A stretch of 64,000 nucleotides of DNA from Gammaproteobacteria bacterium (GTDB taxonomy: Bacteria; Pseudomonadota; Gammaproteobacteria; GCA-001735895), in the NCBI GenBank assembly GCA_050298595.1, contig JBNKUM010000118.1, positions 41,146 through 105,145 of the forward strand, read 5' to 3'. The translations under genes and the position numbers were made by a program. Positions 42,641-47,788 of this stretch are shown piece after piece. Positions within the stretch are counted from its first letter, which is position 1. Each line of letters starts with the position of its first letter. The notes below the pieces were generated by a model. That model was not told the DNA's origin. It worked only from the letters and a program-made list of their open reading frames with translations, and searched no databases.

Positions 42641-42841
42641 TTAATCATGTTCTTCTATCCATGCCATCTGAATAGCTTCCAGAATTTTTTCATTTGAGCC
42701 TTCTGGGTTATCATCAAAATCATCCAGAGCACAAACCCAGCTATGTAGATCAGTAAAGCGAACATACTGGGGGTCTACATCCGCATGTGTTTGTTCCAGT
42801 TCAATCGCTATATCCAGTGTATCTATCCATTTTAAAGCCAT
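42641..42841 (-). CDS. iscX: Fe-S assembly protein IscX
   Basis: LKWIDTLDIAIEL, VRFTDLH, SNEKILEAIQMAW. Confidence 0.93.
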   Translation of the reverse strand: MALKWIDTLDIAIELEQTHADVDPQYVRFTDLHSWVCALDDFDDNPEGSNEKILEAIQMAWIEEHD

Positions 42842-43037
42842 AGTTCACCTCCTCAGTATCATTAGCCTTAAATTATAAATCAGCTGTCGTAAAAACCTAC
42901 TATTTTGAGACAAAATTGATGATTATGAATGTTTGATGCAGGTGCTTTATGGGATACTGAATCTGGGTTACTACTCTTATGCGAGTGGTCAACTGCAGAA
43001 TCCAGGTTAAACTTGCTAAAAGCAAAGTAGCTGCACT

Positions 43038-43376
43038 TTAATGAGTTTCAGAAACCATGTTGATGGTGTATTTAGGAATTTCAATAACCAGATCATTCTG
43101 ATTAACCTTTGCCTGACAGCTTAAGCGGGAATCCGGTTCCAGACCCCAGGCTTTGTCCAGATAATCATCTTCATTCTCATCAGACTCTTCCAGGGTTTCA
43201 AAACCTTCTCGGATATAGACGTGGCAGGTGGTACAGGCACAGGATTTTTCACAGGCATGTTCAATTTCAATGCCATTCTGTAACAGCGCGTCACAGATAC
43301 TAACACCGCTTTCGGCGTTAAACACTGCGCCATCGGGGCAAATTTCTTCATGTGGAAGTACGATAATCTGGGGCAT
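43038..43376 (-). CDS. fdx: ISC-type [2Fe-2S] ferredoxin
   Basis: [37 protein letters not shown]. Confidence 0.95.
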
Positions 43377-45248
43377 TTACACATCCACCTGTTCAATATT
43401 TTTTCCTGAGAGTACTTTCTGTACACTCGCATTCATACGTCGGGCCACGTACTCTTCGCTAGCCACTTCAACCTGCTTGATCGCCTTCTTCAAGCTATCG
43501 CTGGAAGCAGTTTCGATTATTCTTTCCAGCTCATCACGAACCGATTGAATCTGTTGATATTCATCATTTGATAACAGCTCATGACCATCCGATGCCAGCG
43601 CTGAATCTACTGCTTCTAACACACGTCTTGCTTCAACCTGCTGTTCAGCCAGCATGCGCGCATCGATATCTTCTTTGGCATGCGACATAGAGTCACGCAG
43701 CATGGTCTCAATCTCATTATCCGTTAAACCATAGGAAGGTTTAATCACGATATCTGCACGCACTCCGCTACTTTTTTCTTCTGCCAATACTGATAGCAAC
43801 CCATCTGCATCCACCTGATAGGTTACCCGGATACGTGCAGCCCCGGCTGTCATTGGAGGAATGCCGCGCAATTCGAAGTGGGCTAGTGAACGACAATCAG
43901 AAACCAGCTCACGCTCTCCCTGCACGACATGGAATGCCATTGCCGTCTGGCCATCCTTGAAGGTAGTAAACTCCTGTGCTCGAGCTACAGGGATAGGGCT
44001 ATTCCGATCAATAATCTTTTCACTCAGTCCACCCATGGTTTCGATACACAGCGATAATGGCAACACATCTAACAGCAACATTTCCTGGTCATTTTTATTA
44101 CCTGCCAGTACATCCGCCTGTAAAGCTGCACCTATCGCCACTACCTTGTCCGGATCAAGATCGATTAAGGGTTCGCGCTCAAAGAACTTACCCACCTGTT
44201 CAACAACCAGAGGAACCCGGGTAGATCCACCGACCATGACAACATTGGTTATTTCGCTTTTATCCAGCTTCGCATCGCGTAATACCCGGCGACAGGACAT
44301 CAGGGTTTTCTTCACCAGATCCTGGATCAGACTATTCATGGTGTCGCGCGTCAGCGTTGTAGTAAAACTGAGGTTTGCGTGCTCAATCTTGATTTCAGTG
44401 GAATCATTTAAAGTCAGGTCTTCCTTGGCCTTACGTGCAGCAATCAGAATCTGACGTGACAATATAGAATCTATCTTTTCTATACCGGCCTGTTTGATTA
44501 TCCATTCACCGATATCGTTATCCATATCATCACCACCCAGAGAACTATTCCCGCCGGTGGCCAGTACTTCGAATACACCCTTATTCAAATGCAAAATGGA
44601 GATATCAAAGGTACCGCCACCCAGATCATAAATGGCAATAACACCATCGGGCTGTTGATCCAGGCCATAAGCGACCGCCGCTGCGGTTGGTTCGCCGAGC
44701 AATCGATACACATTCAATCCAGCCAGTCTGGCCGCATCACGCGTAGCCTGGCGCTGGGCATCATCGAAATAAGCAGGCACCGTAATCACAACACCGCTAA
44801 GTTCCTCACCCAATGTTTGTTCTGCACGATCAGCCAGAGATTTAAGTATTTCTGCAGATACCTCAATGGCACTCACATGCCTCTGTCGGGTAATGATACG
44901 TGGAACAGTAGAATCAGTATTGCCATCAAACTCATAGGGTAAGACATTAGAAAGGCCTTTCAGGTCTTCGATACCTCGGCCCATGATGCGTTTCACCGAT
45001 GATAATGTATTCAATGGGTCGGAAGCCTGTAACAGCTGTGCTTCATACCCAACCAGAGTCTGTTCAGCGCCATAATGCACAATAGAGGGCAGCAAATGCC
45101 TGCCCGCTTCATCGGGCAGAGTTTCTATCTTGCCGCTGCGTTTTACCGCTACCAGTGAATTGGTAGTGCCAAGGTCAATACCCGCAGCATAATTACGATG
45201 GTGCGGCGCACTGGCTTGTCCAGGTTCTGTGATTTGTAGTAATGCCAT
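43377..45248 (-). CDS. hscA: Fe-S chaperone HscA
   Basis: [49 protein letters not shown]. Confidence 0.95.
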
Positions 45249-45270
45249 GATTTATTAGTGTTAACAGCCC

Positions 45271-45813
45271 CTAAAATAACTGATCTTCCAGCTCAAACTG
45301 AAAGTCGTCGAGCTGATCGAGTATACGTTGGACAAACTGCATTTTTTTGCTCACTTGACGCGCCTCTTCCAGCTTGCCCTGCTGATAGAGAGTTTCAAAT
45401 TGTTCGGCATACTCTTTTGAGCGTTGGTCGAGTTTACCCGTCACATGATCGCAGCAACGCATGGGATCCTGGCAGCTTTTGCATTGATCCATCTCTTCGC
45501 GTATTTCAATCTGTTCCATCAGAAAAGCAGTATCATTGGTGGTTTCGTGCTCATCATTCATATCCAGGCCACCGATTTCGAGCATATAGCGTGCTCTTTT
45601 CACCGAGTGATGCAGAATTTCATAAGCTTCGTTAATCCACGCTGCCTTTTGTACTGCTATACGCTTTTCCTGATCACTGCCATTTATAAAGCGATCAGGA
45701 TGATAGGCTGCCTGTAATTTTTGGTGATTATCATGTAGCAGGCGCTTATCCAGTTGAAAATCAACCGGCAGGCCAAACAGCTCAAAGTAATTTTGATTCA
45801 GATCGAGTTGCAT
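45271..45813 (-). CDS. hscB: co-chaperone HscB with an unusual Cys-rich segment
   Basis: NYFELFGLP, J-domain HPDRF, INEAY, FLMEQIEIRE followed by CKSCQDPMRCCDH. Confidence 0.92.
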   Translation of the reverse strand: MQLDLNQNYFELFGLPVDFQLDKRLLHDNHQKLQAAYHPDRFINGSDQEKRIAVQKAAWINEAYEILHHSVKRARYMLEIGGLDMNDEHETTNDTAFLMEQIEIREEMDQCKSCQDPMRCCDHVTGKLDQRSKEYAEQFETLYQQGKLEEARQVSKKMQFVQRILDQLDDFQFELEDQLF

Positions 45814-45824
45814 ATCGGCAATAT

Positions 45825-46148
45825 TCAGACGGTAAAGCTTTCGCCGCAACCACACTCATCCTTGGCATTAGGATTGGTGAACTTAAAGCCTTCATTAAGC
45901 CCTTCACGCGTAAAATCTACCTGAGTGCCATCGAGATAAACCAGGCTTTTCGGGTCTATAATGACCTTCACACCCTGGCTCTCAAACACCTGGTCTTCTT
46001 CGTTTAACTCGTCTACAAACTCGAGAACATAAGCCATACCTGAACAGCCCGTGGTCTTGATACCGATTCTCAAACCGATACCTGAACCTCGATTATCCAG
46101 AAAGCTCTTCACGCGTTGGGCAGCAGTTTCAGTCAAACTTATTGTCAT
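45825..46148 (-). CDS. iscA: A-type Fe-S carrier IscA
   Basis: [28 protein letters not shown]. Confidence 0.95.
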
Positions 46149-46159
46149 GTGTATCTCCT

Positions 46160-47314
46160 TCAGTTAGCTGCACGTCTAAAACTGGCAGGCACCTGATTGA
46201 TTAAACTGTGTAACAAAGCAATCAGTTGATCGATTTGTTGACAGGTATTGTCATTACCAAAACTAACCCTGACGGCATTCAGTGCCAGCGCTTCATCGAC
46301 CCCCATGGCCCTGAGTACATGGCTGGGTTGAGTGACCGCACTATGACATGCTGATCCACTGGCTAGCTCGAAACCGGCCTGATCAAGTTGCATCAGCAGG
46401 GTTTCACCGTGGTAGTAAGGAATTGAAAAGTAACTGGTATTGGGCAAACGTTCGCAGCTACCTGAAAAAATATGCACACCGCTTATGCCCATCAGTTGCT
46501 GTTCAAAATAGCGCCGCAATTCTAACAGATATGTCTGACGCTCTTGCAAATTTATTTGTGCTAATTGCGCAGCTTTCCCCATACCCACCAGTAGTGCCAC
46601 ATTCTCAGTGCCAGCGCGTCGCCTGGATTCCTGTGGTCCACCACTTAGTAAAGGTTTTTTAATATTAGCCTTATGATTGAGTATTAACGCACCGCAGCCC
46701 TGTGGGCCCTGGAATTTATGTCCTGAGAGCGTTAACAGGCCTGCGTTTAGATCTTTAATATCAACCTCAATCTTGCCTACCGCCTGAGTAGCATCGGTAT
46801 GCAGCAATAGATTATCTGACGAAACTTGTTCGAATAGTCGTTTTACTGGCTGAATAGCGCCAGTTTCATTATTCGCTAGTTGCACTGATAGCAGATCAGG
46901 ATTGTATTCAGCAATCACAGCGGTCGATTCTGAGACGTCTACCAATCCTTCAGCATTCACCGCTAAATAAGCAGTGGATCCACCCATAGCCGCAATCTGC
47001 CTGACCGGTTCAAGAACACTGGCGTGTTCAATTGAGCTGCACATAATGCGACTGTTCTGGCTATCCGCAACAAAGCCTTTGATAGCTAAATTGTTTGCCT
47101 CAGTACCACCGCTAGTGAAGATAACGTTTGCAGCATCGGCATTCACCAGCTCAGCAACCTGCTGACGCGCACTCTCAATCGCTGAACGTAAAAAGCGGCC
47201 ACTTTGATGCAGGCTGGAAGCATTGCCATGCGATGCCTTCAGGAAAGGTAACATAGCATCCAGCACTTCAGGGTGTAGCGGGGCTGAAGCATTATGATCA
47301 AGATACACGGGCAT
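46160..47314 (-). CDS. group I cysteine desulfurase (NifS/IscS-like, short C-terminus)
   Basis: [33 protein letters not shown] (PLP Lys), RAGTEN, ASGSAC (catalytic Cys). Confidence 0.9.
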
Positions 47315-47326
47315 CGGCTTTAATAA

Positions 47327-47788
47327 TCAGGACTGGCCGGACGCCATGTAATGTGGAAAGTCCTGTTCTGTATAATCTTCGTCACTGATCTGGTTACGAA
47401 TCATATCAGCCAGAGATATACCGGTCAGGTAGCTGGAAATCTGATTGCTTAATTCATCCCACAGCTGTTCGGTGAGACAGGGCTCGTAATTATTGGCTCC
47501 TGGTAAGGCATCTTTATTAGTCACTTCAACCTTATCGTCTACCGCTAGAATGATGTCCGAGACACTCACCTGTTCTGGAGAAACACTCAATCGATACCCG
47601 CCGCCAGGGCCACGCGTACTGATAACCAGCTTATTACGCCGCATCTTGGCGAATAACTGTTCCAGATAGGACAGGGAAATCCCCTGACGTTGAGAGATAT
47701 CTGCTAAGGATACGGGTCCCTTATCCGAGTGCATAACCATATCGAGTAATGAAGTAACTGCATATCTGCTTTTGGTGGATAAACGCAT
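47327..47788 (-). CDS. iscR: IscR-like Rrf2 regulator lacking most cluster ligands
   Basis: MRLSTKSRYAVT, ISQRQGISLSYLEQLF, RGPGGGY; K92, A98, C104 and E107 where E. coli IscR has C92, C98, C104 and H107. Confidence 0.85.
   Translation of the reverse strand: MRLSTKSRYAVTSLLDMVMHSDKGPVSLADISQRQGISLSYLEQLFAKMRRNKLVISTRGPGGGYRLSVSPEQVSVSDIILAVDDKVEVTNKDALPGANNYEPCLTEQLWDELSNQISSYLTGISLADMIRNQISDEDYTEQDFPHYMASGQS

Follow-up and report, generated by a model that had tools for sequence, protein, structure and literature searches.

A candidate metal-binding Cys/His cluster at the C-domain hairpin of HscB in a gammaproteobacterial lineage with an iscU-less isc-type operon

Zinc-thiolate centres in chaperones are exemplified by the CxxCxGxG zinc fingers of DnaJ and by the redox-switch zinc centre of Hsp33, and ligand sets of three Cys and one His (Cys3His) that hold a [2Fe-2S] cluster are known from IscR (C92/C98/C104/H107) and from the NEET-type CDGSH proteins. 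Bacterial HscB, a co-chaperone of iron-sulfur (Fe-S) cluster assembly, is usually described as a metal-free adaptor. Within the same family, human HSC20 binds zinc via two CXXC pairs located in its N-terminal domain (PMC6006194), and for E. coli HscB the residues L92, L96 and F153 were reported to matter most for IscU binding, whereby R87, R99 and E100 contribute less and D103 and E104 are peripheral (PMC3040723). The present work deals with the HscB encoded on a 64,000-nucleotide stretch of a gammaproteobacterial genome (GenBank assembly GCA_050298595.1, contig JBNKUM010000118.1, positions 41,146 to 105,145 of the forward strand), which as a whole is referred to as the window, and in particular with a cluster of four Cys and one His in the C-domain of this protein. 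The evidence supports a functional site under selection, composed of one His and three to four Cys at a hairpin turn, which is most likely a structural or redox-sensitive Zn(Cys3His) site. Among the papers listed by literature searches outside subscription journals, none was seen to describe Cys clustering in this domain for any bacterial HscB. The features of the gene and of the cluster are as follows.

45271-45813, minus strand: hscB, 180 amino acids from the ATG at 45813, stop codon included; J-domain and three-helix C-domain (Pfam DnaJ and HSCB_C; TIGR00714)
45694-45702, minus strand: HPD tripeptide of the J-domain, H38 P39 D40 (columns invariant in alignment A1)
45475-45531, minus strand: C-domain helix 1, residues 95-113, with the IscU-docking stripe F97 L98 I102 R105 E106, ending in C111 (gap-free against E. 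coli HscB)
45445-45483, minus strand: Cys/His cluster C111-x2-C114-x5-C120-C121-x-H123, residues 111-123, translation CKSCQDPMRCCDH
45481-45483, minus strand: codon of C111
45472-45474, minus strand: codon of C114
45454-45456, minus strand: codon of C120
45451-45453, minus strand: codon of C121
45445-45447, minus strand: codon of H123

The frame surrounding the cluster reads TAFLMEQIEIREEMDQCKSCQDPMRCCDHVTGKLDQRSK and the wider HscB stretch around it is FLMEQIEIREEMDQCKSCQDPMRCCDHVTGK; motif and frame thereby agree with the original prediction, in which C-x2-C-x5-C-C-x-H had been recognized from the DNA letters. C111, C114, C120 and C121 are the only Cys of this HscB, none being located outside residues 111-121. 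Their clustering exceeds chance: when four Cys were distributed randomly over 180 positions, they spanned at most 11 residues in 0.046% of 200,000 trials. Residue numbering counts from the ATG at 45813. The open reading frame (ORF) as called mechanically opens at a GTG (45855, 194 amino acids), whereby its extra part (45816-45855, minus strand) overlaps the end of iscA; since the homologues nearly all comprise 179-182 amino acids, the ATG is the likely start.

The phmmer alignments with the HscBs from E. coli and V. cholerae run through the hairpin without insertion or deletion, hence the motif represents a substitution and not an insertion. At the positions of C111, C114, C120, C121 and H123, E. 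coli HscB possesses I105, A108, L114, E115 and F117, and V. cholerae HscB possesses V, C, A, L and A, i.e., a single Cys only, at the C114 position. Considering the gap-free alignments together with the structure model, the motif was placed where the helix-1/helix-2 hairpin turns, and its positions are largely hydrophobic in the solved relatives. The major IscU-binding residues L92, L96 and F153 of E. coli HscB align to L98, I102 and F160, and R87, R99, E100, D103 and E104 align to N93, R105, E106, D109 and Q110 (residue roles from PMC3040723). The earlier claim that the motif resides beside the IscU-docking helix was thereby confirmed, as it follows directly upon the docking stripe and C111 is next to the last peripheral docking residue. 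Judged from helical phase, C111 would belong to the stripe 97-101-104-108-111 that faces the bundle, whereas the stripe 98-102-105/106-109 would face IscU.

The identity of the protein as HscB was derived from TIGR00714, which was passed with 105.8 bits (equivalog cut-off 46.75), and from PF07743 (HSCB_C; 46 bits, cut-off 22.1), whereby Pfam DnaJ was matched with 27.8 bits, exactly its cut-off of 27.8, and the protein stays below the cut-offs of the three narrower HscB equivalogs NF003449, NF002935 and NF001420. Beyond DnaJ and HSCB_C no further Pfam domain was found in it, and it is the sole HSCB_C match in the whole genome. An AlphaFold2 model, computed from an alignment of 30 HscB sequences (A1), has a mean predicted local distance difference test (pLDDT) of 90 and a predicted template modelling score (pTM) of 0.81; its C-domain consists of the helices 95-113, 117-144 and 148-179 with a three-residue loop 114-116, which is flanked by the motif residues, and pLDDT at the hairpin is 91-95. 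The best fold matches in the PDB were V. cholerae HscB (4it5), E. coli HscB (1fpo) and human HSC20 (3bvo), with template modelling scores (TM-scores, normalised to the query length) of 0.84, 0.80 and 0.86, respectively, and the sequence E-values were 2.7e-35 for 4it5 and 3e-31 for 1fpo. L98, R105, E106 and F160 are invariant in A1, as are F97, E100 and Q101. With the bacterial HscBs of known structure (E. coli 1FPO, V. cholerae 4IT5) the window protein hence shares the two-domain fold, the HPD tripeptide, the IscU-docking residues and the neighbouring hscA and fdx genes. Going by its sequence, it is most likely a conventional IscU co-chaperone: HPD, L98, I102, R105, E106 and F160 are kept, it is the only HscB of the genome, and IscS and IscU are encoded on another contig (C56).

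When the 25-amino-acid stretch around the motif was compared with the PDB at E<=10, only chance-level matches were obtained (beta-1 adrenergic receptor, hydrophobin; E 1.2-3.8). A DnaJ-type zinc finger (CxxCxGxG repeats, PF00684) was not identified in the protein by Pfam, and the motif contains neither Gly nor CxxCxGxG; the DnaJ and Hsp33 zinc centres are alike in principle, being Cys-rich zinc sites of a structural or redox-responsive kind in a chaperone or co-chaperone, as is predicted for the window site, but a relation of sequence or fold does not exist. The Cys3His sites of IscR and CDGSH likewise place three Cys and one His into a short stretch, and IscR belongs to the same pathway, but spacing and fold differ and HscB has no Pfam match to CDGSH or Rrf2. 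Heme c binding via CxxCH was considered as well and was ruled out, as the residue after C114 is Gln. Human HSC20 (3BVO) is a precedent in that it, too, is an HscB-family J-protein with an additional Cys site of tetrahedral geometry, to which the stabilisation of a conformation is ascribed (PMC6006194). In HSC20 this site is formed by C41/C44 and C58/C61 of an additional N-terminal domain, in agreement with the N-terminal location given in the original prediction, whereas the window Cys reside in the C-domain hairpin, and the window protein lacks the human-type N-terminal domain, its residue 4 aligning to residue 40 of the 3bvo chain. The HSC20 zinc site and the window motif arose independently.

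Of 223 candidates from the homologue search, 206 had E<=0.001; the best 120 of these were analysed, yielding 55 cluster representatives with at least 68% identity and 56 with 50-67% identity. Conservation of the Cys in HscB homologues had been proposed earlier as a check of the motif, and in the close orthologues (at least 68% identity) it was found to be strict for the proposed ligands: C111, C114, C121, H123 and also P117 are each present in 55/55, and D116 in 54/55. C120 is found in 36 of the 55, its place being taken by S in 8, A in 4, R in 3, G in 3 and I in 1, and 53 of the 55 proteins have no Cys outside the hairpin. Across 14 differing DNA versions, taken from species-level genomes, each ligand is encoded by both of its synonymous codons (C111 TGC 8/TGT 6; C114 TGT 8/TGC 6; C121 TGT 10/TGC 4; H123 CAT 10/CAC 4). 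Within the crown group, for which rows of less than 170 amino acids were dropped, leaving 49 full-length rows of the 55, conservation of residues 106-134 is 0.89 as compared to 0.81 for the whole protein. Among the 56 representatives with 50-67% identity, C111 is found in 49, C121 in 45 (Ser in 10), C120 in 31 and H123 in 27; C114 is present in 8 only, with N (15), A (11), D (10) or K (7) instead.

A wider sample comprised 150 representatives clustered at 50% identity, the best of 5741 matches with E<=0.001. The number of Cys within residues 106-129 is none in 135, one in 9, two in 2 and three in 4 of them. Five of the six cases with more than one Cys are the nearest relatives of the window HscB. 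The sixth, P0139, is 43% identical to the window HscB and possesses three Cys together with a four-residue insertion in the hairpin (CRKFDDPNGCLGCSDK); it may represent an independent multi-Cys hairpin. For the genome of P0139 no match was obtained among the 400 genomes of the class that were scored (a further one, G271, not being among them), the best match, at 43%, being the window itself.

The origin of the cluster was followed in a maximum-likelihood tree of 81 HscBs, for which the 14 motif columns had been removed and which was computed as a quick IQ-TREE run, with branch support from the Shimodaira-Hasegawa-like approximate likelihood ratio test (SH-aLRT) only and with one distant iscU-linked HscB as root. 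A clade of 59 rows (SH-aLRT 99), all stemming from iscU-less operons, carries C111 together with C or S at position 121. Nested in it are a clade of 34 rows (support 92) and, within the latter, a clade of 24 rows (support 85) in which C111 and C120-C121 are joined by N or D at 114 and by H, Q, K or R at 123. The 15 rows of the crown clade (support 96), which in turn reside within these 24 rows and include the window, carry C111, C114, a variable residue 120, C121 and H123. The motif hence arose stepwise in nested clades, and its full set is restricted to one crown clade comprising two genera. In a GTDB-based sample all 12 HscB matches from the window's genus and both genomes of the second genus carry the full set, counting full-length matches, with one extra partial match in the second genus that stops before the hairpin; the family's two remaining genera possess partial ligand sets. 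The carriers of the cluster form one group of uncultured sediment-type Gammaproteobacteria.

These data bear upon the idea that Cys and His serve lineage-specific packing only and are devoid of any ligand function. C111 and C121 indeed align to hydrophobic core positions of the solved HscBs and predate the other three residues, and the AlphaFold2 model is confident without a metal being present. We nevertheless consider pure packing very unlikely, as four to five rare residues were gained in nested steps, as they are frozen at 55/55 down to 68% identity with their codons turning over synonymously, and as 135 of the 150 wider representatives have no Cys here at all.

The gene neighbourhood of hscB in the window is an isc-type operon of seven genes, the features of which, hscB itself excepted, are as follows.

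42641-47788, minus strand: operon, seven genes in a row, Rrf2/IscR-like gene, 384-amino-acid desulfurase, iscA, hscB, hscA, fdx, iscX (Pfam, NCBIfam)
47327-47788, minus strand: IscR paralogue (Rrf2); TIGR02010 172.6 bits, below the cut-off of 207.55
46160-47314, minus strand: group-I cysteine desulfurase of 384 amino acids (Des384), class V, in the usual place of iscS-iscU (Pfam Aminotran_5)
45825-46148, minus strand: iscA, A-type carrier; TIGR02011 188.9 bits, cut-off 150.6
43377-45248, minus strand: hscA, Hsp70 partner; NF003520 HscA 944 bits, cut-off 620
43038-43376, minus strand: fdx, ISC-type [2Fe-2S] ferredoxin; TIGR02007 179.9 bits, cut-off 132.1
42641-42841, minus strand: iscX; TIGR03412 110.4 bits, cut-off 40.4

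In the window and in related loci hscB adjoins hscA within an isc-type (iron-sulfur cluster, ISC) gene cluster of the order iscA-hscB-hscA-fdx-iscX. The distance between the last two genes varies: it amounts to only about 30-200 bases in the window, L004 and L010, and in several crown-clade relatives (L006-L009, L013, L015 and L017) iscX is located about 2.5 kb downstream of fdx, therefore at least one further gene is inserted there in these relatives. With ORF, Pfam and NCBIfam profiles no iscU was detected between the desulfurase gene and iscA or elsewhere in this operon. The original prediction had spoken of an operon lacking IscU, which holds for the operon and not for the genome: in contrast to E. 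coli and V. cholerae, iscS and iscU are separated from hscB and reside on contig C56, where a true IscU (TIGR01999 221.7 bits, cut-off 192.4; also PF01592) that retains LPPVKIHCS adjoins a true IscS (755 bits, cut-off 643) and a canonical iscR precedes both. Of the 25 genomes sampled from the family, 23 encode an IscU that scores above the cut-off, the two misses being 79% and 74% complete, and in all 22 genomes in which both genes were found IscU adjoins IscS on a contig separate from that of hscB.

Gene order and hairpin Cys were compared across 80 related loci. The order iscR-like gene, 384-amino-acid desulfurase, iscA and hscB without iscU was identified in 53 of them (one with an unreadable hairpin), iscR-like gene, iscA and hscB without desulfurase and without iscU in four, and the canonical order iscR-iscS-iscU-iscA-hscB in 20; three loci are cut upstream. 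The records of the canonical loci are titled mostly as Thiotrichaceae, Thiothrix, Cocleimonas, Leucothrix and Methylophagaceae, with a few titled only as Gammaproteobacteria or Pseudomonadota. A side observation concerns the subclade of L027, L031, L032 and L034, in which the iscR-like gene is followed directly by iscA-hscB and HscB possesses V at position 111 and C121 as its only hairpin Cys. Three of these four records are titled Acidimicrobiia, Polaribacter and Urechidicola, yet their operon is of the gammaproteobacterial type, which is why these three contigs may be mis-binned.

Within residues 111-123 no Cys is present in 20/20 of the canonical iscU-containing loci, the Cys of which had been suggested earlier as a point to check, whereas one to four Cys are present in 56/56 readable iscU-less loci. 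At face value the association with iscU absence, which had been put forward as a point to check, is hence perfect. However, all iscU-less loci form one clade, so that the link amounts to a single phylogenetic event and not to a repeated correlation. Furthermore, a genome of another family (G033) with the order iscS-iscA-hscB without iscU in between (L138, G033:C9) and a stand-alone IscU on another contig (L084, G033:C30), an independent relocation of iscU, encodes an HscB without any hairpin Cys. The full ligand set was found in 14 loci only (12 iscU-less and 2 cut upstream), corresponding together with the window HscB to 15 of the 59 rows of the iscU-less clade; as the layout without iscU defines all 59 rows, it predates the motif.

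On this basis we regard the strongest reading of the original prediction, by which HscB would take the place of IscU as scaffold or sulfur acceptor for Des384, as highly improbable. The presence of a desulfurase without IscU in the operon and the lack of hairpin Cys in the canonical loci would fit such a function, but IscS and IscU with its LPPVK motif are encoded in this genome and in 23/25 genomes of the family, HscB retains the IscU-docking residues and HPD, and the layout is older than the motif. Likewise, of the loci that contain the desulfurase without iscU (53 in total, 52 of them readable), 40 lack the full ligand set, the four loci that have no desulfurase either possess only C121, and the independent iscU-less arrangement of G033 does without Cys. 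A structure prediction of the complex of HscB with the IscU from C56, computed with Zn included, scored 0.51 as compared to 0.01 for the best control and lends weak support to their interaction: of 157 solved complexes 116 attain the pass mark, as do 2 of 215 mismatched pairs, whereby scores of up to 0.60 comprise only 18 of the 157 solved complexes plus both mismatches that passed. The runs agree in at least 98% of contacts and the partner pLDDT is at least 90; if a similar complex has been solved, this pass may reflect likeness to it.

The regulator and the desulfurase of the operon differ from their canonical counterparts. The IscR paralogue possesses K92, A98, C104 and E107 and thus lacks three of the four cluster ligands, whereas the canonical IscR of C56 (L144:3644-4126), to which it is 50% identical, possesses C92, C98, C104 and H107. 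In a comparison from which loci without an IscR match longer than 300 bases were dropped, the x-x-C-E pattern was identified in all 49 iscU-less IscR-like sequences (48 loci and the window) and C-C-C-H in all 15 canonical IscRs (14 iscU-linked loci and the C56 copy). Des384 stays below every NCBIfam equivalog cut-off, the best being NifS with 375 bits (cut-off 530.75); it is 34% identical to the IscS of the genome, the alignment ending near IscS residue 383 of 410, and about 25 C-terminal residues of IscS are missing from it. On contig C85 (L002, G000:C85) a nif-type cluster with NifU (298 amino acids), NifS and an IscA/HesB-like gene was found, which adds to the two isc-type loci, so that the genome holds three desulfurase-linked Fe-S assembly loci.

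The loss of ligands from the IscR paralogue in 49/49 iscU-less sequences, together with their retention in the canonical IscRs, suggests that a cluster-sensing function may have been displaced, and it thereby favours the idea that the hairpin of HscB itself binds an Fe-S cluster, in the simplest case a [2Fe-2S] cluster with Cys3His ligation. HscB would then be a transient acceptor or carrier of clusters from IscU, or would sense how well clusters are supplied and adjust chaperone activity accordingly. Such binding is a serious rival to zinc in view of what HscB handles, though it is rather unlikely. In line with it are the strict conservation of C111, C114, C121 and H123, the location of the ligands one turn past the peripheral docking residues (D109 and Q110, i.e., E. 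coli D103 and E104), and the presence of Asp or Asn at position 114 in the intermediate clades, Asp being able to ligate clusters. On the other hand, C111 would by its helical phase face the bundle core instead of the IscU-docking face, and a 13-residue site in a helical hairpin is more typical of structural zinc. That a labile [2Fe-2S] cluster bound via Cys3His makes HscB a cluster acceptor or sensor, whereby cluster status would be read at the chaperone step instead of, or besides, at transcription, is on balance unlikely.

The four thiols could also function without any metal, with reversible disulfides, e.g., between C111 and C121 across the hairpin or within C111-x2-C114, by which co-chaperone activity would be switched according to redox state. 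Conservation covers both a CxxC pair and two Cys that face each other, and Fe-S assembly is sensitive to oxidants, hence a redox input would be plausible. The equally strict conservation of H123 (55/55) is left unexplained by a disulfide, though, the cytoplasm is reducing, and a CxxC that closes a helix at its C-terminus differs from the thioredoxin-type arrangement; we therefore regard a metal-free switch as quite unlikely.

The reading we favour is that of a conventional IscU co-chaperone HscB with an added candidate metal site, zinc being the most probable metal, and it is given an even chance of being correct. What the data show is the motif with its place in the fold, its conservation and stepwise origin, the intact J-domain and docking residues and an IscS-IscU pair encoded elsewhere in the genome; a common point for the side chains, a bound metal and its identity are what we infer. 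HscB would act as a J-protein that docks IscU and passes it on to HscA, and in one lineage the small hydrophobic plug at the helix-1/helix-2 turn would have been turned into a metal-binding site, with C111, C114, C121 and H123 as ligands, C120 as an optional fifth and zinc most probably as the metal. The zinc would staple the hairpin just past the IscU-docking stripe. As the site is rich in thiolates, the stability of the C-domain could respond to oxidants or to metal supply. A zinc staple is favoured because the site is compact, because it replaces a hydrophobic plug and because zinc has a precedent in human HSC20 (PMC6006194).

Several points weigh against this assignment. C121 and H123 are related as i and i+2 and would point to different sides of a regular helix, and the geometrically neat set C111/C114/C120/H123 includes the only Cys that is not invariant. 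C111 and C121, which are buried and older than the rest, could simply be small core residues, with Ser replacing C121 in 10 of the 56 representatives with 50-67% identity, and AlphaFold2 folds the hairpin confidently in the absence of a metal. As Cys3His is also a typical [2Fe-2S] set and HscB handles Fe-S clusters, zinc is a preference and not a result.

For the biology of the family, the ligand-less IscR paralogue and the distinct desulfurase beside a canonical operon imply a split and partly duplicated ISC system, in which a canonical iscR-iscS-iscU operon is accompanied by a second one composed of a ligand-less IscR paralogue, a NifS-like desulfurase, iscA, hscBA, fdx and iscX. With the hairpin variants of the nested clades, a natural series is available for studying the residue-by-residue assembly of a metal site. 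If true, the site would be the second independent metal site in the HscB co-chaperone family, after the N-terminal zinc of human HSC20, and the candidate site would offer a simple, testable handle on the way in which zinc, redox state or the supply of clusters might tune Fe-S delivery.

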